Source: Candidatus Micrarchaeia archaeon
Lineage (GTDB): Archaea; Micrarchaeota; Micrarchaeia; Anstonellales; JAHKLY01
DNA length: 64,000 bases
Direction: 5' to 3'
Assembly: GCA_041653315.1 (NCBI GenBank)
Contig: JBAZFO010000003.1
Span: 1,180 to 65,179 of the forward strand
The position numbers were made by a program, and so were the translations under genes. Positions 10,280 through 62,459 of the stretch are shown in pieces (position 1 is the stretch's first letter; every line of letters starts with the position of its first letter). The notes below the pieces were generated by a model, which made no database searches, had not been told where the DNA came from, and saw only the letters and a list, made by a program, of their open reading frames with translations.

Positions 10280-13200
10280 TTAGGCTTCATCTAGCCAGTC
10301 GTCTTCATCGCGCATTAAATTCATACGCGCATTTTGTAATAAAAGCGCTTTTTCAGCGCTTGCTACAATTCTTCTTGTGCGCTCAATTGCATCTGGATTA
10401 ACAGACATTGATGTAAATCCATATTCAACTAAGCGCCTTGCAAAATCTGGATACACAGAAGGCGCTTGACCACATACTGAACATGTAATTCCTTTTTTAT
10501 TACAAGTTTTACCTATATATTTCAAGGATTTTAACACAGCACTGTTTCTTTCATCAAAATCATGCGCTAATTTAGCATTATCTCTGTCAACACCCAAAGT
10601 TAATTGAGTTAAATCATTTGTACCTACAGATACTCCATCTATTCCTACATCTATAAATTCATTTAATAAAATAACATTGGAAGGAACTTCTACCATCATC
10701 CAAAGTTTAAAATCTTTAGTTCTGTACAACCCTACTTCATGAAGTATTGTTTTAACTTGTTTAAGCTCTCCAACTCTCCTTACAAAAGGAATCATTAACC
10801 AAAGATTTTTAAGATTAAATTCATTACGAACTTTTTTTATTGCTTCTAATTCCATTTTGAAAACATTTGGATCTGAAATATATCTTGAAGCTCCTCTAAA
10901 ACCCATCATTGGATTTTCTTCTTCATGCTCATATTTTTCTCCGCCTTTTAATGATTTATATTCATTTGTTTTGAAATCAGTTGCTCTATAAACAACAGGC
11001 CTTGGATAAAAAGCAGAAGCAAATTTTCTTAATTCATTTGATAATTTATTTATAAATTCTTCTTTTCTATTTTCATCAACAAAAACTCTTGGGTGTTCTC
11101 CAATTTCAGCAATAATAAACTCTGCTCTTAATAATCCGATACCATCTACATCCATATCTGCTATTTCTTCAACTCTTGAAGAACTAGCTAAATTAACATA
11201 AATTTTAGTTCCAGTTATAGGAGAATATTTTTCTGTTTGAGAAATTTGTTTAGTTTCTTTATTTTTCATTTTAATTATTCCTTCATATACCACTCCCCTA
11301 ACTGCATCAACAGTTACATTCATCCCAGTAGATAATTTTTTAGTAGCATCGTTAGTACCAACAATACATGGTATGCCTAATTCTCTAGAAACTATGGCCG
11401 CATGTGAAGTTGAACCCCCATAATCAGTTACAATTGCACCTGCTTTTTTCATTGCTGGAACAAAATCTGGAGAAGTCATAGAGGTAACTAAAATTTCGCC
11501 TTTTTGTATTTTATCAATTTCATTTTTTGTAGGGATAATTCTTACTCTGCCAGAAACAACTCCTGGTGATGCACCTAATCCTTTTAATAAAACTTCTCCT
11601 TGTTCTTCATCAGAAGAATAATATGAAGGAGAATCTTCTTCATAAGATAAAGAATATCTTTCATTAATGTCTTTTTTTTCTGCTAATGAATCAAGTAAAT
11701 TATTAACTTCATCTTTTTCTTCTGTATTCTCTTGATCTAAAGTAGTAATAGGTCTAGATTGTACTATATACATTTTTCCATTTTCATAAGCCCATTCTAT
11801 ATCTTGAGGAACACCATAATGTTTTTCTATTTTTCTGCATATTTTTGCGAGTTCTACTATCTTATCATCAGATAATTTTTGTAGATTTTGAGAACTTAAT
11901 GAAATATCAATATGTTCATTTTTACCTTCAGATAAAATCAATTTCCAAGTCTGTGTAGAAATAAATTTATTTATTATTTGTAAATCATCTTTTTTAACTG
12001 AATATCTATCTGGAGTCAACGCACCAGACACTACAACTTCTCCTAATCCATATGCACCTTCAATTTCTATTCTATTTTTATCTTGGGTAATAGGATCAAC
12101 AGTAAAAGCTACACCTGCTGTTTCTGATTGAACCATTTTTTGGACTACAGCTGAAAGTCCGACTTTTAAATGATCAAATCCATTTTCAGTTCTATAAAAA
12201 ATAGCCCTGGATTCAAATAAAGAAGCCCAACATTCTTTAACAGATTGAACTACGTTTTCAGGTCCTTGAATATTAAGAAATGTTGACTGCTGCCCAGCAA
12301 ATGAAAATGTGTTATGGGTAATTATTCCCCCAGTTCCAGCAACAAAATTTTCAATTCCTGGAACAGTAAAATCATAAACCCACCCTTCATAATCTAATGG
12401 CTTTACTTCTTTTATTTTTTCCCAATTCACATCACCATCAAAAATAGATGAAAGATCTTCTGAATTATACTCTTTCATTAATTCTTTGAATCTTTTTTGT
12501 GTATATTCTCCATTTAATACTCCTTTATTCCAAGGAGTTGATTCTCTTTTAAATTTCCCAAATTCATCATAATAAACATATGCTTCTTCCTTTTCTTTAA
12601 TTACATCTTTATCATAAAAAGACTTTTTACAATTTGGACAATAATATCTTGTTTTTGTTTTATATTTGCTTGATTTATTTATTTTTTCTTTACAAATAGG
12701 ACATTTATTTATTTCAATGATGTCTTTTGATAATTTTGCATCTACTTTGTTTTTTATAATATCTGATAATTTTTTTGAAATTTTTATATTCGCTATATAT
12801 CTTGGAGAATTATTTTTTATTTTTATTAATTTATTTAATCTTTCTTGCTTCTTTGGATGTTCAAATCCTATCTCTTTTTTAAATAAATCAACATCTCCCC
12901 CCCAAATACTAAGCACCCTATATTTTTTCTTTTTATTAAAAGTAATACCAAAACCAAAAAGTTCTAATAATTTTGCTAAACCACTTATAAGTAAGTATGA
13001 AGAAGAGGTACAACTTATTGTATCTTTACTTACATATCCATCTCCATCAAAATAACCTTTTAAAAATTCAGATATAAATTGCTTTTCTAAACTAAAAATA
13101 AAATCTGGTATCCGTTTTATTTCACAGGATTTGCCTTTACCTTTCATATCTAAAGGTTTACCAGTTAATTCATGCAATAATTTAACGAGTGTTTTACAAT

Positions 13201-14251
13201 ATATCCTTAACGAATACTTATTTATTTTTTGATTATTATATAAACCAAGCGAATCAACAAATTTTATTACTCTATTCATGATTTCTTTTGTTGATGAAGT
13301 TATGATAACATTATTATCTTCATATGTTGAACCTTCAGCAACATAAACACCTAAAAAATACATAAAATCCTTTGTTAATGGAATTTTTGAAGGTAAAGAA
13401 TTTTGGATATTCCAATTATTAGAATTATTTTTAATCATAAGGTATCCATTTTCTTCAACAACATTTTTTCCTTTTATATAATCTGTTACCTCTAAATATT
13501 CCATTTTTTTATTTACAAATGGAAGTGTACCAACAGTAGGAACCATTTCTCCTCCTTTTAAATTATCAATTGTTTCTGTTTTCCATTCTAAAGTATCTTC
13601 ATCTAAAACTATTAAAGAATGATTTTTAGATACAGTAATCTCTTTTCCTGAAGCAGTTTTTATTTTATATACTCTTTCATTTGCGGGGTGTCTATATATT
13701 GAACTAGCGCTAGTCCATATTAATTTATTGTTTTTCATAGAAGGAACTTCTAAATTCACATTTTGTCCATCCCCAATTAATTTATATAATTCCCCCATTG
13801 TACAAAATTTGGTATTATTATTTATCTTTACTAAAACATGATCTTCTTCTGATATACTTGGCAAATCTTCTGCTGTGGCTGAAGATCTTACTGCAACATA
13901 GGTTTGATCACCATATTTTTGACATAATTTATTATACGCATCCATTATTTCATTTTTTAAATAATCTGGAATTTTACCTGCTAAAATTGCATTTTTAATA
14001 AATAAAGAAGCTTCATTTAAATTTTTAATATTATGAACATCTAAATCACTGGAATATTCTTTTATTAAAGAAGTAATATTATTTAATCTAATAAAATCAT
14101 AATAAGCTCCACTTGAAACACAAAAACCATCTGGAATTGGAAAATCTGAATTAATCATTTCACCTAGATTAGCCCCTTTTCCCCCAACTTCTGCTAAATT
14201 ATTTTTACTCAATTCTTTAAACCAATAGATATTTTTCATTATAAACACCAA
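10280..14251 (-). CDS. ppsA: Phosphoenolpyruvate synthase (PEP/pyruvate-binding, PEP-utilising and PEP-synthase domains), interrupted by an intein
   Basis: N-terminus GGKGANLGEM. Extein junction VAVRSSATAEDLP / TFSFAGQQSTFLN matches the conserved AEDLP..SFAGQQ block. The conserved PEP-utilising domain and C-terminal Cys block are present. Called start is TTG; the in-frame ATG at Met5 is an alternative. Confidence 0.9.
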   Translation of the reverse strand: MVFIMKNIYWFKELSKNNLAEVGGKGANLGEMINSDFPIPDGFCVSSGAYYDFIRLNNITSLIKEYSSDLDVHNIKNLNEASLFIKNAILAGKIPDYLKNEIMDAYNKLCQKYGDQTYVAVRSSATAEDLPSISEEDHVLVKINNNTKFCTMGELYKLIGDGQNVNLEVPSMKNNKLIWTSASSIYRHPANERVYKIKTASGKEITVSKNHSLIVLDEDTLEWKTETIDNLKGGEMVPTVGTLPFVNKKMEYLEVTDYIKGKNVVEENGYLMIKNNSNNWNIQNSLPSKIPLTKDFMYFLGVYVAEGSTYEDNNVIITSSTKEIMNRVIKFVDSLGLYNNQKINKYSLRIYCKTLVKLLHELTGKPLDMKGKGKSCEIKRIPDFIFSLEKQFISEFLKGYFDGDGYVSKDTISCTSSSYLLISGLAKLLELFGFGITFNKKKKYRVLSIWGGDVDLFKKEIGFEHPKKQERLNKLIKIKNNSPRYIANIKISKKLSDIIKNKVDAKLSKDIIEINKCPICKEKINKSSKYKTKTRYYCPNCKKSFYDKDVIKEKEEAYVYYDEFGKFKRESTPWNKGVLNGEYTQKRFKELMKEYNSEDLSSIFDGDVNWEKIKEVKPLDYEGWVYDFTVPGIENFVAGTGGIITHNTFSFAGQQSTFLNIQGPENVVQSVKECWASLFESRAIFYRTENGFDHLKVGLSAVVQKMVQSETAGVAFTVDPITQDKNRIEIEGAYGLGEVVVSGALTPDRYSVKKDDLQIINKFISTQTWKLILSEGKNEHIDISLSSQNLQKLSDDKIVELAKICRKIEKHYGVPQDIEWAYENGKMYIVQSRPITTLDQENTEEKDEVNNLLDSLAEKKDINERYSLSYEEDSPSYYSSDEEQGEVLLKGLGASPGVVSGRVRIIPTKNEIDKIQKGEILVTSMTSPDFVPAMKKAGAIVTDYGGSTSHAAIVSRELGIPCIVGTNDATKKLSTGMNVTVDAVRGVVYEGIIKMKNKETKQISQTEKYSPITGTKIYVNLASSSRVEEIADMDVDGIGLLRAEFIIAEIGEHPRVFVDENRKEEFINKLSNELRKFASAFYPRPVVYRATDFKTNEYKSLKGGEKYEHEEENPMMGFRGASRYISDPNVFKMELEAIKKVRNEFNLKNLWLMIPFVRRVGELKQVKTILHEVGLYRTKDFKLWMMVEVPSNVILLNEFIDVGIDGVSVGTNDLTQLTLGVDRDNAKLAHDFDERNSAVLKSLKYIGKTCNKKGITCSVCGQAPSVYPDFARRLVEYGFTSMSVNPDAIERTRRIVASAEKALLLQNARMNLMRDEDDWLDEA
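12311..13858 (-). mobile_element. Intein (516 aa) with a LAGLIDADG homing-endonuclease domain inside ppsA
   Basis: Begins SISEEDHVLV (Ser1) straight after DLP and ends ...GGIITHN followed by Thr+1. LAGLIDADG blocks LGVYVAEGS and LKGYFDGDGYVS. Removing it restores an 807-aa PpsA. Confidence 0.8.
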
Positions 14252-14364: not shown

Positions 14365-14502
14365 GGGCTCGTAACTCAGCTTGGTAGAGTGGCTGGCTTT
14401 TAACCAGTAAGCCAAGGGTTCAATAACCTTTTTCTTTCTTGCAAGAAAGTAAAAGCTTAACCAAAAAGAAAGAAACTGGAAGAATAAATCCCTTCGGGCC
14501 CG
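14365..14502 (+). tRNA. tRNA-Lys (anticodon UUU) with a roughly 61-nt intron inside the T-loop (between TTCAA and AT, position 58/59)
   Basis: Acceptor GGGCTCG/CGGGCCC, D arm ACTC...GAGT, anticodon stem-loop GCTGG CTTTTAA CCAGT. T stem AAGGG...CCCTT is split by an intron that carries the hairpin TTTCTTTCTTGCAAGAAAG. Poly-T follows. Confidence 0.7.
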
Positions 14503-16745: not shown

Positions 16746-16974
16746 ATTAAAATTTAATATAAAATTATCTCAGAATAAATTTATAAAACATAGCTTTATA
16801 AACGAAAAACACGTATAATATTATAGGCAATGAAGTCACCGTCCCAGTATGAGATTAACGATGATTACCGGAGTAGCTACTGAGCCCATTATTATATTTT
16901 TTAATATTTTATACTCCATTACTTTTTTTACCAAAGTTATACTTTTATATAACTTTCGTAATATAATATCTTCT

Positions 16975-17619
16975 ATGGAATTACCAATTGAGAAAAAATT
17001 AAAAAAACAAGTACATTTAGAAACTGCTATTTTACAAGATATAATAATGGAAAAACTCGTTTATTCCTTAGACTTAGTTCTTCATGGAGGAACTTCTATA
17101 TGGCGAGTATATAAAGGAAATCGGTTTTCTGAAGATTTAGATTTTTATATGGAAAAATGGGAACCTGATAAAATAAAAGAAACTTTAAAAGAATTAGAAA
17201 TTTTTGAAATGAAACTCAAAAAATTTAAAAAAACAAAAAATACTGTTTTTTCAGTAATTGAAAAAAACAATGTAATTGTAAAAGTAGAAGCTTCTAAAAA
17301 ACACTGGAAATTTAAAGAAATGTTAGGAGAATATGAAAAAACAAATGGAAGTTATCTTCCTATTAGTACATTATCAGCAGAAGATTTATTCAAAGAAAAA
17401 ACAAAAACATATTTAAATAGAAGATTGATAAGAGATATTTATGATATATATTTCTTATTCCATCAGTGCGATTTTAAAAAAATAGAAAAAACAGGTAAAG
17501 AATTTATAAAAAATATCCCTTTCCCAAAAGATGAAGATGTTTTAAAATCATTAATTTTAACAGGAAAAGTTCCAACATTTAATGAAATAAAACTAAAATT
17601 ATTAAATTGGTTTAAATAG
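16975..17619 (+). CDS. AbiEii-type nucleotidyltransferase (DUF1814-like toxin of a type IV TA/Abi module)
   Basis: GGTSIWRVYKGNRFSEDLDFY matches the AbiEii GGTAL...RFSEDIDF signature. The track ORF begins at 16849, but the first 42 codons are hydrophobic low-complexity, so ATG at 16975 (MELPIEKK) is preferred. Confidence 0.6.
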   Translation: MELPIEKKLKKQVHLETAILQDIIMEKLVYSLDLVLHGGTSIWRVYKGNRFSEDLDFYMEKWEPDKIKETLKELEIFEMKLKKFKKTKNTVFSVIEKNNVIVKVEASKKHWKFKEMLGEYEKTNGSYLPISTLSAEDLFKEKTKTYLNRRLIRDIYDIYFLFHQCDFKKIEKTGKEFIKNIPFPKDEDVLKSLILTGKVPTFNEIKLKLLNWFK

Positions 17620-17627
17620 GTGAAATT

Positions 17628-18137
17628 ATGAAATATTCGTTAGAAATATTCAAATCAAAAAAATATCCTGTTTTTACGTTTAAAGATATTAAACAATTAA
17701 AAATACCTAAAAACTATGCAAAACAACTTATGTATAATAAAATAAAAAGAGGAGAAGTAAAAAGAATTAAAAAAGGGTATTATACTTTTCACGAAGATCC
17801 AATGATTGTAGTATTTGCATATGAACCAGCATATCTAGGATTAGAATCAGCATTAAGTATACATAAGGTTTGGGATCAAAAAACTGTTCCTGTGATTATA
17901 ACACAAAAAAACGTTAGACAGGGAATAAGAAAATTTAATAATACAAATTATGTTGTTAAAAGAATAGCACCCTCTTTATTTACAGATTACACAACCATTA
18001 ATTATTATGGGTTTTGGCTTCCTGTTTCAACTTTAGAAAAAACTTATGAAGATATCAAATATTTTAATGAAAAAATAGATCCAAAAACTATGAGGAAATT
18101 AAAAAAACTAATTAAAAAAAATAAACTTAAAAAATAA
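17628..18137 (+). CDS. AbiEi-like putative antitoxin/transcriptional regulator (wHTH N-terminus)
   Basis: N-terminal YPVFTFKDIKQL...KRGEVKRIKKGYYTF resembles the AbiEi N-terminal domain. Start is 9 nt after the AbiEii stop. Confidence 0.4.
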   Translation: MKYSLEIFKSKKYPVFTFKDIKQLKIPKNYAKQLMYNKIKRGEVKRIKKGYYTFHEDPMIVVFAYEPAYLGLESALSIHKVWDQKTVPVIITQKNVRQGIRKFNNTNYVVKRIAPSLFTDYTTINYYGFWLPVSTLEKTYEDIKYFNEKIDPKTMRKLKKLIKKNKLKK

Positions 18138-25836: not shown

Positions 25837-26433
25837 ATGAAAAATATAATTAAAATTTATGAAGCACTGATTAATCGAAAATCAAAAATATGTCATAGAA
25901 AAGAAATTATTGATATAATCAAAGAATATAATAAAAAATTTGGGAAAGTAAACATTAAAAACACGCTAAAATATCTTTCAAGACATAAATATACTATACG
26001 AGTATTCAAAAAGTTCTATTATATAAATTCATTAGATGAAAAGGAGCGTAAATTTTGTTTATTTGAAGATAGAGAATTATTATTTTCTGTATTAAACAAA
26101 CTCGATATTAAATGGTATGTTGGACTTAACTCTGCTTTATACATTTCTGGAGAAATTTGGCAAATACCAAACATATTGACAATAGTAAACAACAAAATAA
26201 GTGGAAAAAAATCAATACTTGGAATTACTGTTAGATTCTTCAAAATAAAAGAATCTTTAATTTTCGGCCTTAAGACAAAAAAAACTAAAAATAAAATTAA
26301 ATTTTATTACTCTAATCCCTCAAAAACTTATTTAGATTTAGTATATTTCAAACAATCTAAAAAAATTATTTTAAAGGAAAAAACTAAAAATTATCTTAAG
26401 AGGTATCCAAAATGGCTCAAAAAATTAATATAA
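25837..26433 (+). CDS. AbiEi-like antitoxin/regulator
   Basis: N-terminal wHTH-like LKYLSRHKYTIRVFKKFYYI. Overlaps the downstream AbiEii gene by 22 nt. Confidence 0.5.
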   Translation: MKNIIKIYEALINRKSKICHRKEIIDIIKEYNKKFGKVNIKNTLKYLSRHKYTIRVFKKFYYINSLDEKERKFCLFEDRELLFSVLNKLDIKWYVGLNSALYISGEIWQIPNILTIVNNKISGKKSILGITVRFFKIKESLIFGLKTKKTKNKIKFYYSNPSKTYLDLVYFKQSKKIILKEKTKNYLKRYPKWLKKLI

Positions 26434-27329
26434 ATAAATACATTGCAGAGGTCAAAAGGAATCTTGGAATAAAAGTTTCAGATGAAATAATTGAAAAAGA
26501 CCTGCTTCTGACTATTATTTTAGGGGAGTTTGAAAAGCTCGGGCTTGGAAAAGAACTTATTTTTAAAGGAGGAACTCTTTTATCGAGAAATTATTTGAAT
26601 TACCATCGATTTTCTGAAGATTTGGATTTTGTTCATCATAAATCCAATAAATTAAGAAAAATGAAAAGAAGAACAAGAGAAAAGGAAATTAAAAAATTCA
26701 TAGATTCATTTGTTCCAAAAATATATACATTAGCTGAAAACCTTGAACTTATATTTAGTAAAAATAGAAGTGATACAAAATTCTGTACTATTCTTCATGG
26801 AAGGACAGTATATATTTTCAGAATGTATTATTCTAACTCTAGATTTATAAAAATTGAGATTAATTTTATAGAAAAAATTATTCACAAACCAGTAAAAATT
26901 TCAATAAAAACAATAACTGATCTTTTTGATTCAAAAGAACTTGTGTTCAGTCTTGGGCTTGATATTCAAAACTTTAATATAAAAAGCTATTCTATAAATG
27001 AAATACTCATTGAAAAATACAGGGCAATTTTAACAAGAAAAGACTTAAAAGAAAGGGATTTGTTTGATTTATTTTTTATTCCAAATTCTCTTTCAATAAA
27101 AAAATCTGAAATAATACAAAAAATAAGTGCTTCATCATTAATAAAACGGGATCTTAATAAACTAATAGAAAAAAAACTTACTTTACTTGAAAAAAACAAT
27201 TTTTTTGAGAGTGATGAAAATATGGAATACCTAGCAATCGCTAATTATGATAAAAAGAAATTTGAAAAATTTAAGGAAAAAATAAAACCAAAACTAATAG
27301 AAATTTGCAAGACATTTTTAAGTAAATAG
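26412..27329 (+). CDS. AbiEii-type nucleotidyltransferase toxin (DUF1814-like)
   Basis: KGGTLLSRNYLNYHRFSEDLDFVH signature. Confidence 0.7.
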   Translation: MAQKININKYIAEVKRNLGIKVSDEIIEKDLLLTIILGEFEKLGLGKELIFKGGTLLSRNYLNYHRFSEDLDFVHHKSNKLRKMKRRTREKEIKKFIDSFVPKIYTLAENLELIFSKNRSDTKFCTILHGRTVYIFRMYYSNSRFIKIEINFIEKIIHKPVKISIKTITDLFDSKELVFSLGLDIQNFNIKSYSINEILIEKYRAILTRKDLKERDLFDLFFIPNSLSIKKSEIIQKISASSLIKRDLNKLIEKKLTLLEKNNFFESDENMEYLAIANYDKKKFEKFKEKIKPKLIEICKTFLSK

Positions 27330-28379: not shown

Positions 28380-28567
28380 ACTTATTATTAAATAGTAGAA
28401 ATAAATAAAAAATAGCGTATTACTTTTTTGGATTAATATCTTTAAAATAAGATCTTCTTCCTAATTTTTCCTTTTTTGTATCTTGTTTTTTTTCTCCTTC
28501 AGAATCTGTTCCATCCCAAAAAATCATATTATCACCAATTAATTTATTTAACATAAAAATATAAAAA

Positions 28568-28810
28568 TGCTCCGGCCGGGATTTTCTCCCAGTTGGCTTT
28601 TTTGCGCCAGCCAAGGTTTTGAATTCTCGAGCCTACAGGGTTCTTTTCTTTCCCTGGGGTTTCTTTTCTTACAAGAAAAGAAAGGCCACCCGGGTCGCCA
28701 GGGATCTCCAAATTTTCTTTTTCTTTCCCAAGGGTTTCTTTTTCTTTTCAAAAAAGAAAAAGAAAGGCTTTGAGAGCCTGGTATCCTTGACCGGACTAGA
28801 CGACCGGAGC
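28568..28810 (-). tRNA. tRNA-Glu (anticodon CUC) interrupted by three predicted introns: in the anticodon loop, at the T-stem/T-loop junction (about 53/54) and within the T-loop (58/59)
   Basis: Exons read GCTCCGGTCGTCTAGTCCGGTCAAGGATACCAGGCTCTCA / CCCTGGCGACCCGGG / TTCAA / ATCCCGGCCGGAGCA. Joined, they give a canonical archaeal tRNA-Glu (GACCCGGGTTCAAATCCCGGCCGGAGCA). Poly-T follows. Confidence 0.6.
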
Positions 28811-28814
28811 TTTA

Positions 28815-28928
28815 CGAATGTAATGAGTAAAGCGAGGTCTTTTTGCAACAGCAAAACAGACCGGAGCAAACGAACGTTAGTGAGTTTGTGAGGTCTTTTT
28901 GACAAAGTCAAAACAGACCGGAGCAAAA
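28815..28928. repeat. Two tandem units of about 57 bp upstream of tRNA-Glu. Each ends in a copy of the tRNA 5' end (GCTCCGGTCTG) embedded in a GGTC...GACC hairpin
   Basis: CGAATGTAATGAGTAAAGCGAGGTCTTTTTGCAACAGCAAAACAGACCGGAGCAAA versus CGAACGTTAGTGAGTTTGTGAGGTCTTTTTGACAAAGTCAAAACAGACCGGAGCAAAA. Confidence 0.7.
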
Positions 28929-29077
28929 AATACAATTTTATTTAATTATATAAAGGATAATTTAAAAAAATACCTAAAAACAAAAAAAGCAAAAGTTAGA
29001 ATATTTTTATAAATGTTGTGGTTGTTTATTAAAGTATAAAATCAAATCATGAACTAATAAAAAGAGGTGAAAAACAC

Positions 29078-45443: not shown

Positions 45444-46448
45444 TCAAAATCGTATGAACATTGCATCTCCAAATGAATAAAATCTATAATGCTGTTCTAT
45501 AGCTTCATTATAAAGCTCATGCCATTTATCTCCTATTAAACTTGCTATTAATAAAAGTAAACTAGTGCGTGGAAGATGGAAATTAGTTATTAAACCATCA
45601 AATTTTAAATTAAATTTATAACCTGGATAAATAAATAAATTAGTTTCTTTAGCGCAAGCCTTAACTTTTCCATTTTTTAATGTAGCACTTTCTAAAGTTC
45701 TTAAAGAAGTTGTACCAACAACATACAAAGCGCCTTTTCTTTTATTAATTACTTCTGCTGCCTTTTTATCAATTTCAAACCATTCAAAATGCATTTTATG
45801 TTTTTTATAATCTTCTTCTCTAATCTCAGCAAAGGTCCCTAATCCTACATGAAGACAAATTTTAACTATCTCAATCCCTTTAGCTTCTAAACGTTCAATT
45901 AATTTACTACTAAAATGCAATCCTGCAGTGGGTGCTGCAACAGAGCCTTCTTTTAATGCAAAAACAGTTTGATATTTTTTTCTATCATAATTTTCATTAT
46001 GTATATATCCAGGTAAAGTAAAATCTCCTTTTTGTTTAATTATTTTTTCAATAGGTTGATTAAATTTTAATAAAAAATGAAAATCAATTTGAGATGCAAT
46101 CTCAGCAATTACTCCATCTTGAAATAATAATTTATTCCCAATTTGTGGATTTTTACATTTAACAAATGCTTCATATTCTTTATTATTTTTCTTTTTTATA
46201 AGGGTTATTGAAGCCTGCCCCCCAGTTTCTTTTTGTCCAATCAATTTTGTATTTACAACTTTGGTTTCATTAACAACTAAAATGTCTCCTTTTTTTAGAT
46301 AATCAACAAGTTCAAAAAAATGTCTGTGTTCTATTGAATCTTCTTTTTTATTATAAATTAACAAACGCGATTCATGTCTTTTATCTAATGGTTTTTGCGC
46401 AATTAATTCTGTAGGTAAATTATAATAATAATTATTTATTGATTCCAT
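45444..46448 (-). CDS. queA: S-adenosylmethionine:tRNA ribosyltransferase-isomerase (bacterial-type queuosine pathway)
   Basis: YNLPTELIAQKP...SRLL, VAAPTAGLHF, LHVGLGTF, VGTTSLRTLESA, IYPGY, ITNFHLPRTSLLLLIASL and YRFYSFGDAMFI all match the QueA conserved blocks. Confidence 0.85.
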   Translation of the reverse strand: MESINNYYYNLPTELIAQKPLDKRHESRLLIYNKKEDSIEHRHFFELVDYLKKGDILVVNETKVVNTKLIGQKETGGQASITLIKKKNNKEYEAFVKCKNPQIGNKLLFQDGVIAEIASQIDFHFLLKFNQPIEKIIKQKGDFTLPGYIHNENYDRKKYQTVFALKEGSVAAPTAGLHFSSKLIERLEAKGIEIVKICLHVGLGTFAEIREEDYKKHKMHFEWFEIDKKAAEVINKRKGALYVVGTTSLRTLESATLKNGKVKACAKETNLFIYPGYKFNLKFDGLITNFHLPRTSLLLLIASLIGDKWHELYNEAIEQHYRFYSFGDAMFIRF

Positions 46449-55496: not shown

Positions 55497-58319
55497 TTGA
55501 AAGGTGAAAATATGAAAAAAATAAATGAAGCAGAATGGGAAATTCCAAAAGAAGGCAATATGAATGTACCAATAAAAATTATTGGAACTGAAAAATTAAT
55601 TGAACAAATGAAAAGAGACAGAACATTTAATCAAATAAAAAATGTATCAACATTACCAGGGATTATTAAACATGCATTAGTGATGCCTGACGGCCATGAA
55701 GGATATGGTTTTCCTATTGGGGGGGTTGCTGCATTTGATTTAGAAACAGGAGTTATACCTCCAGGAGGGGTCGGATATGATATTAATTGTTTAACTGGAG
55801 ATACAAAAATTCCAACACCATATGGATGGTATCTAAAAATAAAAGATTATAATTTTCTATCTGATATTTCATTAGTAACAAATGGAAATACATATCTATT
55901 CAATACTCTTCAAAATTATTTTGTTTCTTCAAAACAAGGCCAATCAAAAGTTAAAAATTTTATGTATAAAGAATATAAAGGTGAAATATATAAAATAAAA
56001 ACAACTGCTGGAATACTAAAATGTACGGAAGAACACCCTATATTTACTATAAATGGAAAAAAATCAATAGATATTTTAACAATAAAAGATATGATTTTAT
56101 GCAACCCACATTTAGGGGTAGAATATAAAAAATACAAAGGAATTGAAGAAGATAAAAAATTATCTATATTTAGTAAAATTTTTGGATATCTTCTTGGAGA
56201 CGGAACAATTTATAAAACTAAAAACAAATTTTATGCAGTAGCTTATGGAACAGAAGAAGACCTTAAAAAAATGTCAATTGATTTAAAATCAATTGGTTAT
56301 TCTTCAAAAACATATCACAGATTAAGAGACCACTGTATAAAAGGAAAAAGTTTCAAAGCAGATAATTGGGAATTACATATTTATTCAAAGGAATTTATTG
56401 AAAAACTAATTAAACTTGGAATGCCTTTAGGAAATAAAACTAAAACAAAATTTGAAATACCTAATTGGATAATAAAAGGACCTAAATGGATAAAAAAACA
56501 ATTTTTAGCCGGGTATTTTGGAGCAGAAATGTCTAAACCTAAAAGTATGAGTAAAACATGCTTATATTTACCAGATGTAACAATGACAAAAGAAACAAAA
56601 TTAATAGACAATCTCAGATTTTTTATGCTACAGATAAGCAAAATATTAGAAGAATTTGATATAGAAGTATCAAAAATCTCAATTATTGAAAATGAAAAAG
56701 ATAAAAGTAGAATACGACTACTTATTAATGGTAAACCTAAAAATTTAATAAAACTTTATTCAAAAATTGGATTTGAATATAATAATAAAAGAGACTTTTT
56801 AGCAAAATGTGCAATATTATATTTAAGAAAAAAAATTAAAAATAAAAAAGAGAGGAGTGAATTAGCAAAATGGATTAAAAATAAAAAAGAACAAGGATTT
56901 AAAGCTAAAGAAATCAAAAAAATATTAAATGAAAAAATCAACGATAGGTTCATTGAGAGAGCATTTTATGAAAATTGCACTACAAGATTAACTCTTGATT
57001 TTCCATCTTTCAAAAACTTTGTCAAAGAACAAAAAGAATATTTTGAAGTTTATGGTACATTAATAGCTGAAATCATATCTATAGAAAAAAGAAAATTTGA
57101 AGGAAGAGTTTATGATTTCACTATAGAAAAAGATCACAATTTTGTTGCTAATGGAATTATAGTTTCAAATTGCGGGGTGAGATTAGTAACAACTGGTTTA
57201 ACTGTGGATCAAGTTAAACCAAAAATTGATGTTTTGATTAAAAAATTATTTGATAATGTCCCATCTGGTGTAGGTTCAAAAAGTAAATTACGTTTAGATG
57301 AAAATCAATTAAAAGATGCTTTAATAAACGGAGTAGAATGGGCAGTTAAAAATGGATATGGAAGACAAGAAGATATTGAAAATTGTGAAGAATATGGAAA
57401 AATGGAAGGTGCAGATCCATCCGCTATATCACAACAAGCACTAAAAAGAGGAAAACCTCAATTTGGAACATTAGGTGCAGGAAATCATTTCTTAGAAGTT
57501 CAGAAAGTAGATGAAATTCTATCTCCAGAAATAGCTGAAAAATTTGGTTTGAAGAAAGACCAAGTTGTTGTAATGATTCATTGCGGTTCAAGAGGATTAG
57601 GACATCAAATATGTGGAGATTATATTGATATAATGCTTAGAGCATCTGAAAAATATGGAATAAAATTAGCTGATAAAGAATTATGTTGCGCCCCAATAAA
57701 ATCTGAAGAAGCACAAAATTATATGAAAGCAATGAAATGTGCTGTTAATTATGCTTTTACAAATAGACAAGTAATAATGCATTGGGTAAGAGAAACTTTT
57801 GATGAAGTTTTTGGAAAAGGAACAAGTAATGATATGCATCTAGTATATGATGTTGCACATAATATAGCAAAAATTGAAGAACATGAAGTAGATGGGAAAA
57901 CAATGAAAGTATGTGTACATAGAAAAGGAGCAACAAGAGCATTTGCAAAAGGAAGGAAAGAATTACCTAAAAAATATATTGATATCGGACAGCCAGTTCT
58001 AATACCTGGTAGTATGGGAACTGCATCTTATGTTTTAGTTGGAAAACAAAAAGGAATGGAAGTTTCTTTTGGTTCAACATGTCATGGGGCAGGACGTGTA
58101 ATGTCAAGATCAGAAGCAATAAGGTCTTTTACTTTTAATCAAATCAAAGAAGAAATGAATGCAAAAGGAATAAAATTATTAGCTGCAGATAGACAAGTAG
58201 CACAAGAAGAAGCTTCAGGAGCATATAAAGATGTCGACGAAGTAGTTAAAAGCGTTGCGTTAGCAGATATTAGTGAAATAGTTGTAAAATTAAAACCAAT
58301 AGGTGTTGTAAAAGGATGA
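55497..58319 (+). CDS. rtcB: RtcB-family RNA 3'-phosphate ligase (tRNA-splicing ligase) interrupted by an intein
   Basis: Exteins: ...PDGHEGYGFPIGGVAAFD...GVGYDIN / CGVRLVTTG..., with HxxGxRG-type catalytic His motifs in the C-extein (GAGNHFLE, HCGSRGLGHQ, CHGAGR). Joined extein is 479 aa. Confidence 0.9.
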   Translation: MKGENMKKINEAEWEIPKEGNMNVPIKIIGTEKLIEQMKRDRTFNQIKNVSTLPGIIKHALVMPDGHEGYGFPIGGVAAFDLETGVIPPGGVGYDINCLTGDTKIPTPYGWYLKIKDYNFLSDISLVTNGNTYLFNTLQNYFVSSKQGQSKVKNFMYKEYKGEIYKIKTTAGILKCTEEHPIFTINGKKSIDILTIKDMILCNPHLGVEYKKYKGIEEDKKLSIFSKIFGYLLGDGTIYKTKNKFYAVAYGTEEDLKKMSIDLKSIGYSSKTYHRLRDHCIKGKSFKADNWELHIYSKEFIEKLIKLGMPLGNKTKTKFEIPNWIIKGPKWIKKQFLAGYFGAEMSKPKSMSKTCLYLPDVTMTKETKLIDNLRFFMLQISKILEEFDIEVSKISIIENEKDKSRIRLLINGKPKNLIKLYSKIGFEYNNKRDFLAKCAILYLRKKIKNKKERSELAKWIKNKKEQGFKAKEIKKILNEKINDRFIERAFYENCTTRLTLDFPSFKNFVKEQKEYFEVYGTLIAEIISIEKRKFEGRVYDFTIEKDHNFVANGIIVSNCGVRLVTTGLTVDQVKPKIDVLIKKLFDNVPSGVGSKSKLRLDENQLKDALINGVEWAVKNGYGRQEDIENCEEYGKMEGADPSAISQQALKRGKPQFGTLGAGNHFLEVQKVDEILSPEIAEKFGLKKDQVVVMIHCGSRGLGHQICGDYIDIMLRASEKYGIKLADKELCCAPIKSEEAQNYMKAMKCAVNYAFTNRQVIMHWVRETFDEVFGKGTSNDMHLVYDVAHNIAKIEEHEVDGKTMKVCVHRKGATRAFAKGRKELPKKYIDIGQPVLIPGSMGTASYVLVGKQKGMEVSFGSTCHGAGRVMSRSEAIRSFTFNQIKEEMNAKGIKLLAADRQVAQEEASGAYKDVDEVVKSVALADISEIVVKLKPIGVVKG
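55788..57170 (+). mobile_element. Intein (461 aa) with LAGLIDADG homing endonuclease inserted at the GYDIN/CGVR site of RtcB
   Basis: Starts CLTGDTKI (Cys1) and ends ...GIIVSN followed by Cys+1. LAGLIDADG blocks IFGYLLGDGTIY and FLAGYFGAEMSKP. Confidence 0.8.
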
Positions 58320-60524: not shown

Positions 60525-60977
60525 ATGTACAATATTGTTTTAAATAAAATAAAGGAAAATTTTGATTTTGAGGAACTTTTCCTTTATACCTCTTTTTCTA
60601 TTTTTAAAACAGATAAAATAAGAATCGCATGTTCCCAATGTAAAAAAAATAAAATTATATACTTAGAAACATACGAGCCTTCAATGGAAATAATTCAAAA
60701 ACTTAAAGAAAAAAAAAGTATTTTACTTATAAATTTATTAGATATAATAAATAAAGAAGGCCCAAATAGAAGTATTTTAATAAATAGAATAAAATTATTA
60801 TTAAAATTATGTATAAAATATAAAATAGAATTTATATTTTCTTTTTTAGCTTTAAATGAAATGGAAATGAGAACTTTTAAAGAAGGTATTGCGCTTGGGG
60901 TTTTATTAGGTTTAAAACCAATTCAAGCTAAAAATGCATTTATTAATATTAAAAAATTAACTGAAAAAGAGGAATAA
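60525..60977 (+). CDS. Possible reduced RNase P protein subunit (Rpp30-like position), hypothetical
   Basis: Assigned only by its position between rpl15e and the Pop5 gene (the conserved archaeal L15e-Rpp30-Pop5 order). At 150 aa it is shorter than typical Rpp30; no motif confirmed. Confidence 0.3.
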   Translation: MYNIVLNKIKENFDFEELFLYTSFSIFKTDKIRIACSQCKKNKIIYLETYEPSMEIIQKLKEKKSILLINLLDIINKEGPNRSILINRIKLLLKLCIKYKIEFIFSFLALNEMEMRTFKEGIALGVLLGLKPIQAKNAFINIKKLTEKEE

Positions 60978-60981
60978 AAAA

Positions 60982-61308
60982 ATGGGAATAAAGCCTACTG
61001 CAAGAATGAAAAAGAGATATATTGCATTTCAAGTTATTGGAAAAGATGCAGATAAAATTAGTGATATTGAAATTAAAAATACATTTTATTCTATTCTTAA
61101 TCAGCTTTATGGAGAAATTGGTTTTTCAAATTTAGGTTTTAATTTAATTGAATATAAAGAAAAAAAAGGAATAGTTCGTTTTAGAAGACAAGAATTAGAA
61201 AAAGCAATATCTAGTTTTGCATTTATAAAAAATATAAACAACAAAGAAGCTCGTTTATCTCCTTTAAGTACTAGTGGAAGTTTAAAAAAATTAAGAGAAA
61301 AGTTATAA
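60982..61308 (+). CDS. RNase P protein component Pop5 (Rpp14 homologue)
   Basis: KRYIAFQVIG near the N-terminus and SGSLKKL near the C-terminus fit the Pop5 RYI.FE ... SGT pattern; 108 aa. Confidence 0.65.
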   Translation: MGIKPTARMKKRYIAFQVIGKDADKISDIEIKNTFYSILNQLYGEIGFSNLGFNLIEYKEKKGIVRFRRQELEKAISSFAFIKNINNKEARLSPLSTSGSLKKLREKL

Positions 61309-62325: not shown

Positions 62326-62459
62326 CTCTCTAATTAATATTAGTTTTGTGTTAAAATATATATTTAGTTGTATTTAAAAAGGTTTTTATATGGGGATTTA
62401 TAAAAAAACGCTGGAGCAAATAAAATTTGCTTGGTGCATTTTTTCTACAGAAAAAATAG

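Follow-up and report, generated by a model that had tools for sequence, protein, structure and literature searches.

How can a transfer RNA (tRNA) of 75 nucleotides (nt) be read from a gene of 243 nt, whose recognisable parts stand well apart from one another? This question is raised by a tRNA-Glu locus in a DNA stretch of 64,000 nt (hereafter the window, i.e., the whole stretch analysed) from a Candidatus Micrarchaeia archaeon. The locus was pointed out in an earlier note, whose guess of a DPANN lineage agrees with the position of the organism in the Micrarchaeia of the phylum Micrarchaeota, and whose account needs correction as to the strand, the gene lying on the minus strand (28810..28568). 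The four GC-rich blocks quoted in that note are present exactly as given (28810-28771, 28703-28689, 28623-28619 and 28582-28568). Once joined, they amount to 75 nt that ARAGORN calls as tRNA-Glu(CUC) with a full cloverleaf, where 21 of the 21 stem pairs are intact and the G+C content is 65%, vs. 25.9% for the whole window, and the proposal of a 243-nt gene with three introns for a tRNA of some 75 nt is thus borne out. In the unspliced state, the locus yields no ARAGORN call, with intron mode on or off, and no Rfam match at gathering or permissive thresholds. As judged from the evidence set out below, the locus is very probably a genuine, functional tRNA-Glu(CUC) gene of the chromosome with three introns of the bulge-helix-bulge (BHB) type, located at tRNA positions 37/38, 53/54, and 59/60.

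The tRNA-Glu(CUC) gene and its three introns

From the 5' end of the gene to its 3' end, the following features are distinguished:

28771..28810, minus strand: exon 1, tRNA positions 1-37, with the acceptor 5' strand, D arm, anticodon stem 5' strand and CUC anticodon
28704..28770, minus strand: intron 1, 67 nt at the canonical position 37/38, carrying a Y-R1-R2 module (see below)
28689..28703, minus strand: exon 2, tRNA positions 38-53
28624..28688, minus strand: intron 2, 65 nt at 53/54, carrying a Y-R1-R2 module
28618..28623, minus strand: exon 3, the micro-exon UUCAAA, tRNA positions 54-59, with its boundary set by BHB geometry
28582..28617, minus strand: intron 3, 36 nt at 59/60
28568..28581, minus strand: exon 4, tRNA positions 60-73, with the T stem 3' strand, acceptor 3' strand and discriminator A
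28563..28567, minus strand: run of five T (T5) directly after the discriminator, a candidate archaeal terminator

The terminal CCA is not encoded in exon 4, and the gene is neither split nor permuted, its four exons being collinear on one strand within 243 nt. Boundaries were set by explicit exon matching together with BHB geometry; a MAFFT alignment of five such genes, i.e., this one and those of the relatives introduced below, was not used for this purpose because look-alike modules cause the introns to misalign. In archaeal BHB motifs, each of the two splice sites consists of a 4-nt helix strand followed on its 3' side by a bulge NN↓N (the arrow marking the cut), and the two 4-nt strands are paired with each other. 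The 3-4-3 description given by Fujishima et al. (2011; PMC3239211) agrees with the geometry applied here.

Every boundary pair of the gene conforms to this geometry, strictly for intron 1 and as a 3-4-3 motif with one mismatch for introns 2 and 3. Intron 1 forms a strict hBHBh' motif, in which the central helix H is CUCU/GGAG, the bulges are CA↓A and AU↓C, the outer helix h corresponds to the anticodon stem (5 bp) and the inner helix h' counts 2 bp. For intron 2, h' is GGCCU/AGGCU, H is CCCG/CGAG with one C.A mismatch, and the bulges are GG↓U and AA↓U. In intron 3, the T stem (5 bp) serves as h, and H, formed by UUCA/AGAA, has 3 bp and one A.A mismatch; the bulges are AA↓A and AA↓U, and h' is CCU/GGG. 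The polypyrimidine/polypurine (polyY/polyR) hairpin that had been attributed to each of the three introns is present in introns 1 and 2, whereas the inner hairpin of intron 3 is built on UUGGCU...AGCCAA.

The boundary of intron 3 can be placed in four registers by sequence, only one of which, 59/60, gives BHB geometry, and this register is better than 58/59 and 57/58 in all five homologues. The position 58/59 of the earlier note has to be abandoned accordingly, and its micro-exon TTCAA, which is a real exon, is better described as the 6-nt UUCAAA (28623-28618), with exon 4 starting from 28581. Position 59/60 in the T loop is the equivalent of 37/38 in the anticodon loop. The general placement proposed for the introns, namely in the anticodon loop, at the T-stem/T-loop junction and inside the T loop, is upheld by the cloverleaf, the BHB motifs and the junctions seen in relatives alike.

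Intron presence and absence in related lineages

By means of the neighbouring DHH gene, the syntenic locus was found in four further lineages, known from independent assemblies of NCBI, JGI, ENA, and Logan data; a sixth contig (L027) ends inside the array of leader repeats considered below. The comparison with related genomes, as advised in the earlier note, shows intron presence or absence at the very junctions predicted:

Window: introns 1, 2 and 3; gene of 243 nt
L001 (= L014, L015): introns 1, 2 and 3; gene of 259 nt
L017 (= L018, L019): introns 1 and 3; gene of 193 nt
L020 (= L021): introns 2 and 3; gene of 179 nt
L016: intron 3 only; gene of 141 nt

Intron 1 is thus missing in L020 and L016, intron 2 is missing in L017 and L016, and all five have intron 3. 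In genes that lack an intron, the junction reads straight through, as CTCTCA-(C/T)CCTGG or CCCGGG-TTCAAA, exactly at the predicted site, and UUCAAA directly adjoins exon 2 in both lineages devoid of intron 2. The joined exons of the four relatives also give a canonical cloverleaf tRNA; between lineages, the exons differ by 1-3 substitutions over 75 nt with no stem pair broken, and 37 of the 40 positions of exon 1 are invariant across the five lineages, the variable ones being tRNA positions 17, 28, and 32. Within the introns, the H partner in intron 1 covaries across lineages (GGAG, AGAG, or AGGG), and the central helix of intron 2 is perfect (CCCG/CGGG) in L001 and L020. The H partner in intron 3 is UGAA in L017 and UGAG in L016 (4/4 pairs in both), UGAC in L001 and L020 (3/4) and AGAA in the window.

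The three introns also differ in their conservation. Compared with about 81% DNA identity between lineages for the DHH gene next to tRNA-Glu, intron 3 shows just 40-82% identity and intron 2 as much as 92-97%, which, on these sequence comparisons, reflects either selection on the sequence or a recent spread. As introns 1 and 2 are present or absent among genomes with about 81% identity in the adjacent coding DNA, their gain and loss is recent and ongoing in the clade. Beyond it, tRNA-Glu(CUC) is uninterrupted in L002 (Anstonellaceae), an outgroup within the phylum, synteny is lost around the more distant AlaX homologues (P0086, P0087, and P0089), with no tRNA-Glu found there, and a metagenome scan with exon 1 returned two contigs only, both identical to L001. 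Triple-intron tRNAs were rightly called rare in the earlier note, but to call them diagnostic of particular lineages is an overstatement, given the intron-less gene of the outgroup.

Alternative readings of the locus

Because of this comparison across relatives, chance, an assembly artefact and a single composite insert are ruled out as sources of the pattern, and a pseudogene is unlikely. The latter, which we hold to be quite improbable, would mean that the locus is decaying and unspliceable, with tRNA-Glu(CUC) supplied by another gene or GAG read by a modified UUC tRNA. The central-helix mismatches (C.A in intron 2, A.A in intron 3), absent from the perfect helices of some relatives, would fit such decay, as would the failure of standard finders to detect the gene. 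Against this, the cloverleaf stems are all intact, the exons are near-identical in five lineages with neighbouring coding DNA about 81% identical, and both the promoter-like box and the terminator are kept. Moreover, the epsilon2 EndA of Micrarchaeum cuts relaxed as well as strict BHBs in vitro, including one at 59/60 (PMC3239211).

It is highly improbable that the gene has two introns only, with the T-arm interruption as one composite insert and UUCAA(A) as a chance match. An A/T-rich word of 5-6 nt is admittedly not rare at 26% GC, and the edges of the micro-exon are ambiguous by sequence. Yet UUCAAA sits directly on exon 2 in L017 and L016, which have no intron 2, and lies between two separately conserved introns in L020 and L001; no T loop is possible without it, each T-arm segment has its own BHB, and the same pair of sites, 53/54 and 59/60, is published for ARMAN-2 tRNA-Pro (PMC3239211). 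As for self-splicing (group I/II) introns or small transposable insertions, group I introns are reported in archaea (PMC6125680) and the intron module recurs in the manner of a mobile element, but the notion is barely conceivable for inserts of 36-67 nt, far under the size of a ribozyme (whose core would need some 200 nt or more), with 3-4-3 BHB geometry and no target-site duplication at their borders and with no intron family, only spurious miRNA-like matches, in Rfam at E <= 10.

Some points nevertheless weigh against a functional three-intron gene. Expression and splicing of the locus are predicted from its sequence, and the data cover 64 kb of the genome only, such that a second, uninterrupted tRNA-Glu(CUC) may exist elsewhere. 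With the mismatches already mentioned in introns 2 and 3, splicing may be less efficient in the window copy than in those relatives where the helices are perfect. The minimum free energy (MFE) fold of the whole transcript does not give all three BHBs together, as would be expected if splicing is ordered, which it does not prove. Finally, no tRNA_int_endo (EndA) domain was found in the 60 open reading frames (ORFs) of the window that were scanned, all of at least 108 amino acids.

Related introns in other tRNA genes

The tRNA-Glu gene is not alone in being interrupted, since all tRNA genes of the window (5/5) are disrupted by introns, the other four being:

14365-14502, plus strand: tRNA-Lys(UUU), with a 64-nt T-loop intron at 58/59 (H = GUUC/GAAU) containing the polyY/polyR module; no leader units
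31977-31866, minus strand: tRNA-Val(CAC), with a 41-nt T-loop intron at 59/60; one leader unit
40293-40186, minus strand: tRNA-Ile(GAU), with a D-loop intron of about 33 nt, to which no BHB was assigned by hand; no leader units
62676-62460, minus strand: tRNA-Ser(GGA), with introns at 37/38 (71 nt) and 58/59 (62 nt), both containing the polyY/polyR module; two leader units

Run on the 64-kb window, ARAGORN finds none of the five genes and Rfam gives two partial matches, tRNA-Ser(GGA) being called by neither; once the predicted introns are removed, ARAGORN calls a tRNA for Lys, Val, and Ser.

The 64 kb contain exactly five polyY:polyR hairpins with 10 bp or more, all of them inside tRNA introns, namely introns 1 and 2 of tRNA-Glu, the T-loop intron of tRNA-Lys and both introns of tRNA-Ser. 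Each hairpin, formed by a Y tract and a first purine tract (R1), is followed by a second purine tract (R2), and the spacing of C/G residues covaries among the three tracts. In most cases, a mirror of R1 fits R2 equally or slightly better than a direct repeat, which is not decisive. R2 may serve in an alternative Y:R2 pairing, which would give intron 1 a longer outer BHB helix, or in a triplex. Among the T-loop introns, those of Lys and Ser are 85% identical and that of Val resembles intron 3 of tRNA-Glu (60-71% identity); in relatives, the module is also found at 59/60 in L016 and in a tRNA-Ile-like gene of L001. Judging by these sequences, introns 1 and 2 of tRNA-Glu belong to a family of related introns residing at differing positions and in different tRNAs, and the module itself appears to move between positions and genes.

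A Y-R1-R2 module with covarying tracts was also observed in Iainarchaeum (L006 8762-8830 and L007 about 2803-2865), where it directly follows the 3' end of the archaeal RNase P RNA gene (in L006, 8512-8761; Rfam RF00373, 119.6 bits) and precedes the terminator; the module is therefore limited neither to tRNA introns nor to the Micrarchaeia. From the sites known so far, it may occupy only segments that are discarded, i.e., introns at 37/38, 53/54, 58/59, and 59/60 and the 3' trailer of the Iainarchaeum RNase P RNA. Possible roles are those of a mobile intron cargo, of an element for alternative pairing or triplex formation, or of a circular RNA with a function of its own.

Leader repeats and promoter-like elements

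Upstream of the tRNA-Glu gene, the following elements are recognised:

28960..28972, minus strand: conserved A/T box tatttttttaaat, a candidate BRE/TATA element (B recognition element and TATA box) with a putative promoter function
28946..28954, minus strand: TATA-like box tttatataa, as read from the sequence, its centre about 26 nt upstream of leader unit A
28868..28924, minus strand: leader unit A, with GCTCCGGTC (= tRNA nt 1-9), a bulged hairpin and a second hairpin; z = -3.5; covariance-model match of 81 bits
28811..28867, minus strand: leader unit B, again with GCTCCGGTC and a bulged hairpin, plus a second hairpin pairing with G1C2 of the tRNA; z = -4.6

In the window as well as in L001, L020, and L027, the tatttttttaaat box precedes the first leader unit by 35-38 nt, and the spacing of the TATA-like box fits archaeal TATA-to-start distances. 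Units A and B, of 57 nt each, are in tandem, and each unit folds into a first hairpin, with a 1-nt bulge between stem parts of 5 bp and 6-7 bp, and a second one that pairs with G1C2 of the copy after it; z-scores of the unit folds range from -3.5 to -5. Among relatives (L001 6011-6068, minus strand; L016 2773-2829; L017 about 2465-2741; L020 2677-2789; end of L027), the number of units upstream of tRNA-Glu varies from 1 to at least 5, with hairpin and tail types shuffled. Compensatory changes are seen in 7 of the 11 pairs of the leader hairpin, one of them within GCUCCGG itself, and no pair is broken (0/11).

The same design is common to the leaders of Glu, Ser, and Val, where the first 8-11 nt of the gene's own tRNA precede a bulged hairpin of 11-12 bp: tRNA-Ser has two units (62772-62677, minus strand) built on its own 5' end, GCCGAGGTC/A, and tRNA-Val has one (32023-31978, minus strand) starting with GAGCCTGTGGT, i.e., the first 11 nt of the tRNA bar one mismatch. 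No further copy of the leader's core hairpin was found in the window or in the other loci compared; no leader units were found in the outgroup L002, and the covariance model retrieves units only upstream of tRNA-Glu, plus one relic. This Glu-type relic (62402-62459, minus strand) stands directly after tRNA-Ser and ends with GCTCCAGCG followed by T7, which suggests, at the sequence level, a rearrangement whose breakpoint lay close to position 9 of a tRNA-Glu gene.

Several origins were considered for these units. As additional 5' BHB introns they were rejected, the Glu units showing just a palindromic CCGG/CCGG with no flanking helices, and the Ser and Val units nothing consistent. Remnants of attachment (att) sites were likewise discarded, since the repeats of 8-11 nt flank only 35-48 nt and no integrase is found among the neighbouring genes (DUF4013, AlaX, and DHH). 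For a miniature inverted-repeat transposable element (MITE), an IS200/605-type element or an att scar, no terminal inverted repeats were seen by eye, the duplicated lengths are 9, 9, and 11 nt, and no integrase or transposase gene lies nearby, which makes this origin a doubtful one. Our best guess is that the units are transcribed 5'-leader modules, derived from tandem duplication of the leader together with the tRNA start and removed by RNase P. They could amount to a new 5'-leader processing or stability element, or possibly to traces of a small insertion process, target-duplicating or att-like, directed at the 5' ends of tRNAs.

Processing machinery and genomic neighbourhood

Part of the machinery called for by such a gene is encoded in the window:

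55497..58319, plus strand: RtcB tRNA-splicing ligase with an intein (Pfam PF01139, E = 2.6e-171, plus Intein_splicing)
60525..61308, plus strand: RNase P protein genes, i.e., Rpp30-like (60525-60977, under the Pfam cut-off) and Pop5/Rpp14 (60982-61308)

With the Pop5 and Rpp30-like genes in the window, a loss of RNase P with leaderless tRNAs is ruled out. The proposed pathway would run as follows: (i) transcription from near 28924 to the T5 run after 28568, (ii) cleavage by EndA two nt into each 3-nt bulge, the type known in the phylum being the broad-specificity epsilon2 enzyme, (iii) ligation of the exons by the window-encoded RtcB, which, by analogy with other archaea, would probably circularise the excised introns too, (iv) stripping of the structured 5' leader by RNase P, and (v) post-transcriptional addition of CCA. 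Intron 2 would probably leave before intron 3, because H of intron 2 uses T-stem nt 48-51 and the T stem has to serve as outer helix for intron 3; sharing these T-stem nt, the two BHB motifs cannot coexist.

The tRNA-Glu gene lies among housekeeping genes, i.e., those of an archaeal-type alanyl-tRNA synthetase (AlaRS), an AlaX editing protein, a dCTP deaminase and a DHH phosphoesterase, together with a DUF4013 gene; the AlaRS is 83% identical to that of the nearest species-representative, a metagenome-assembled genome (MAG) of Candidatus Micrarchaeota. Elsewhere in the window, inteins with LAGLIDADG homing-endonuclease domains are found in the RtcB gene (55497-58319, plus strand) and in a PEP/pyruvate dikinase-type gene (10280-14251, minus strand). 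Two AbiEii-type nucleotidyltransferase toxin genes are present (25837-27329 and 16849-18137, both on the plus strand), the copy at 26412-27329 being close to the tRNA-Glu/DHH locus, and the ORF adjoining one of the two has a sub-threshold match to the AbiEi antitoxin. An ORF at 45444-46448 (minus strand) strongly matches Queuosine_synth (QueA-like; E = 2.7e-110). As QueA-like queuosine synthesis belongs to bacterial tRNA modification, this match is surprising in an archaeal genome.

Relation to known systems and significance

Three-intron tRNA genes are a rare kind that is already known, to which the Micrarchaeia case adds. In Thermoproteales, tRNAs are said to carry up to three introns (Sugahara, 2008; reviewed in PMC4033280), and related introns are reportedly found across tRNAs and positions, where they have been read as the outcome of intron transposition (Fujishima, 2010). 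The locus described here resembles them in the number of BHB introns per tRNA and in the occurrence of related introns in different tRNAs and positions, and by analogy the intron families of the window fit the same intron-transposition picture. The Thermoproteales are, by contrast, hyperthermophilic Crenarchaeota with an (alpha-beta)2 EndA and GC-rich genomes, and the present organism belongs to the DPANN with 26% GC and other intron families. Three-intron archaeal tRNAs from Thermoproteales are indeed reported in two papers (PMC4033280; PMC3239211). A eukaryotic tRNA gene with three ectopic protein-spliced introns is alike in count, but its introns lie at other positions and bear no sequence relation.

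Closer at hand is ARMAN-2, i.e., Candidatus Micrarchaeum acidiphilum, in which 56% of tRNA genes are disrupted (Fujishima et al., 2011; PMC3239211; this and the following points reflect the available part of that paper). It belongs to the same phylum and has non-canonical BHB introns at the same positions, namely 53/54 and 59/60 in tRNA-Pro(GGG) and 59/60 in tRNA-Cys with a single intron, with strict and relaxed motifs mixed (PMC3239211). The present tRNA-Glu(CUC) thus combines the pair of sites of ARMAN-2 tRNA-Pro(GGG) with the canonical intron at 37/38. The examples given for ARMAN-2 have at most two introns per gene, of 13-25 nt in the substrates tested, in contrast to three of 36-67 nt here; two of these three carry a conserved polyY/polyR module, and leader repeats are not mentioned for ARMAN-2 in that part of the source. 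In the literature searched, the coverage of which is incomplete, no report of a three-intron tRNA in Micrarchaeota was found.

The leader repeats call to mind the att repeats of plasmids and viruses (model in PMC3293823), in that the units start with an exact copy of the 5' 8-11 nt of the tRNA and that gene content upstream of the leader array varies between relatives. They differ from them in several respects, the repeat being 8-11 nt, vs. 44 bp for SSV1, and the insert 35-48 nt, with no integrase gene nearby, and the units being in tandem with a hairpin kept by compensatory changes.

The range of three-intron tRNAs is hereby widened from Thermoproteales to Micrarchaeia. In this DPANN lineage, ARAGORN and Rfam miss most or all tRNA genes and, therefore, tRNA complements as well as completeness estimates based on tRNA counts would be too low. 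The leader repeats and the Y-R1-R2 module are new candidate features that accompany a known kind of gene; that the clade carries in them two undescribed features of stable-RNA genes is a possibility we advance only tentatively. With every combination of two optional introns represented in five lineages, the locus constitutes a natural experiment on the gain, loss and movement of BHB introns.

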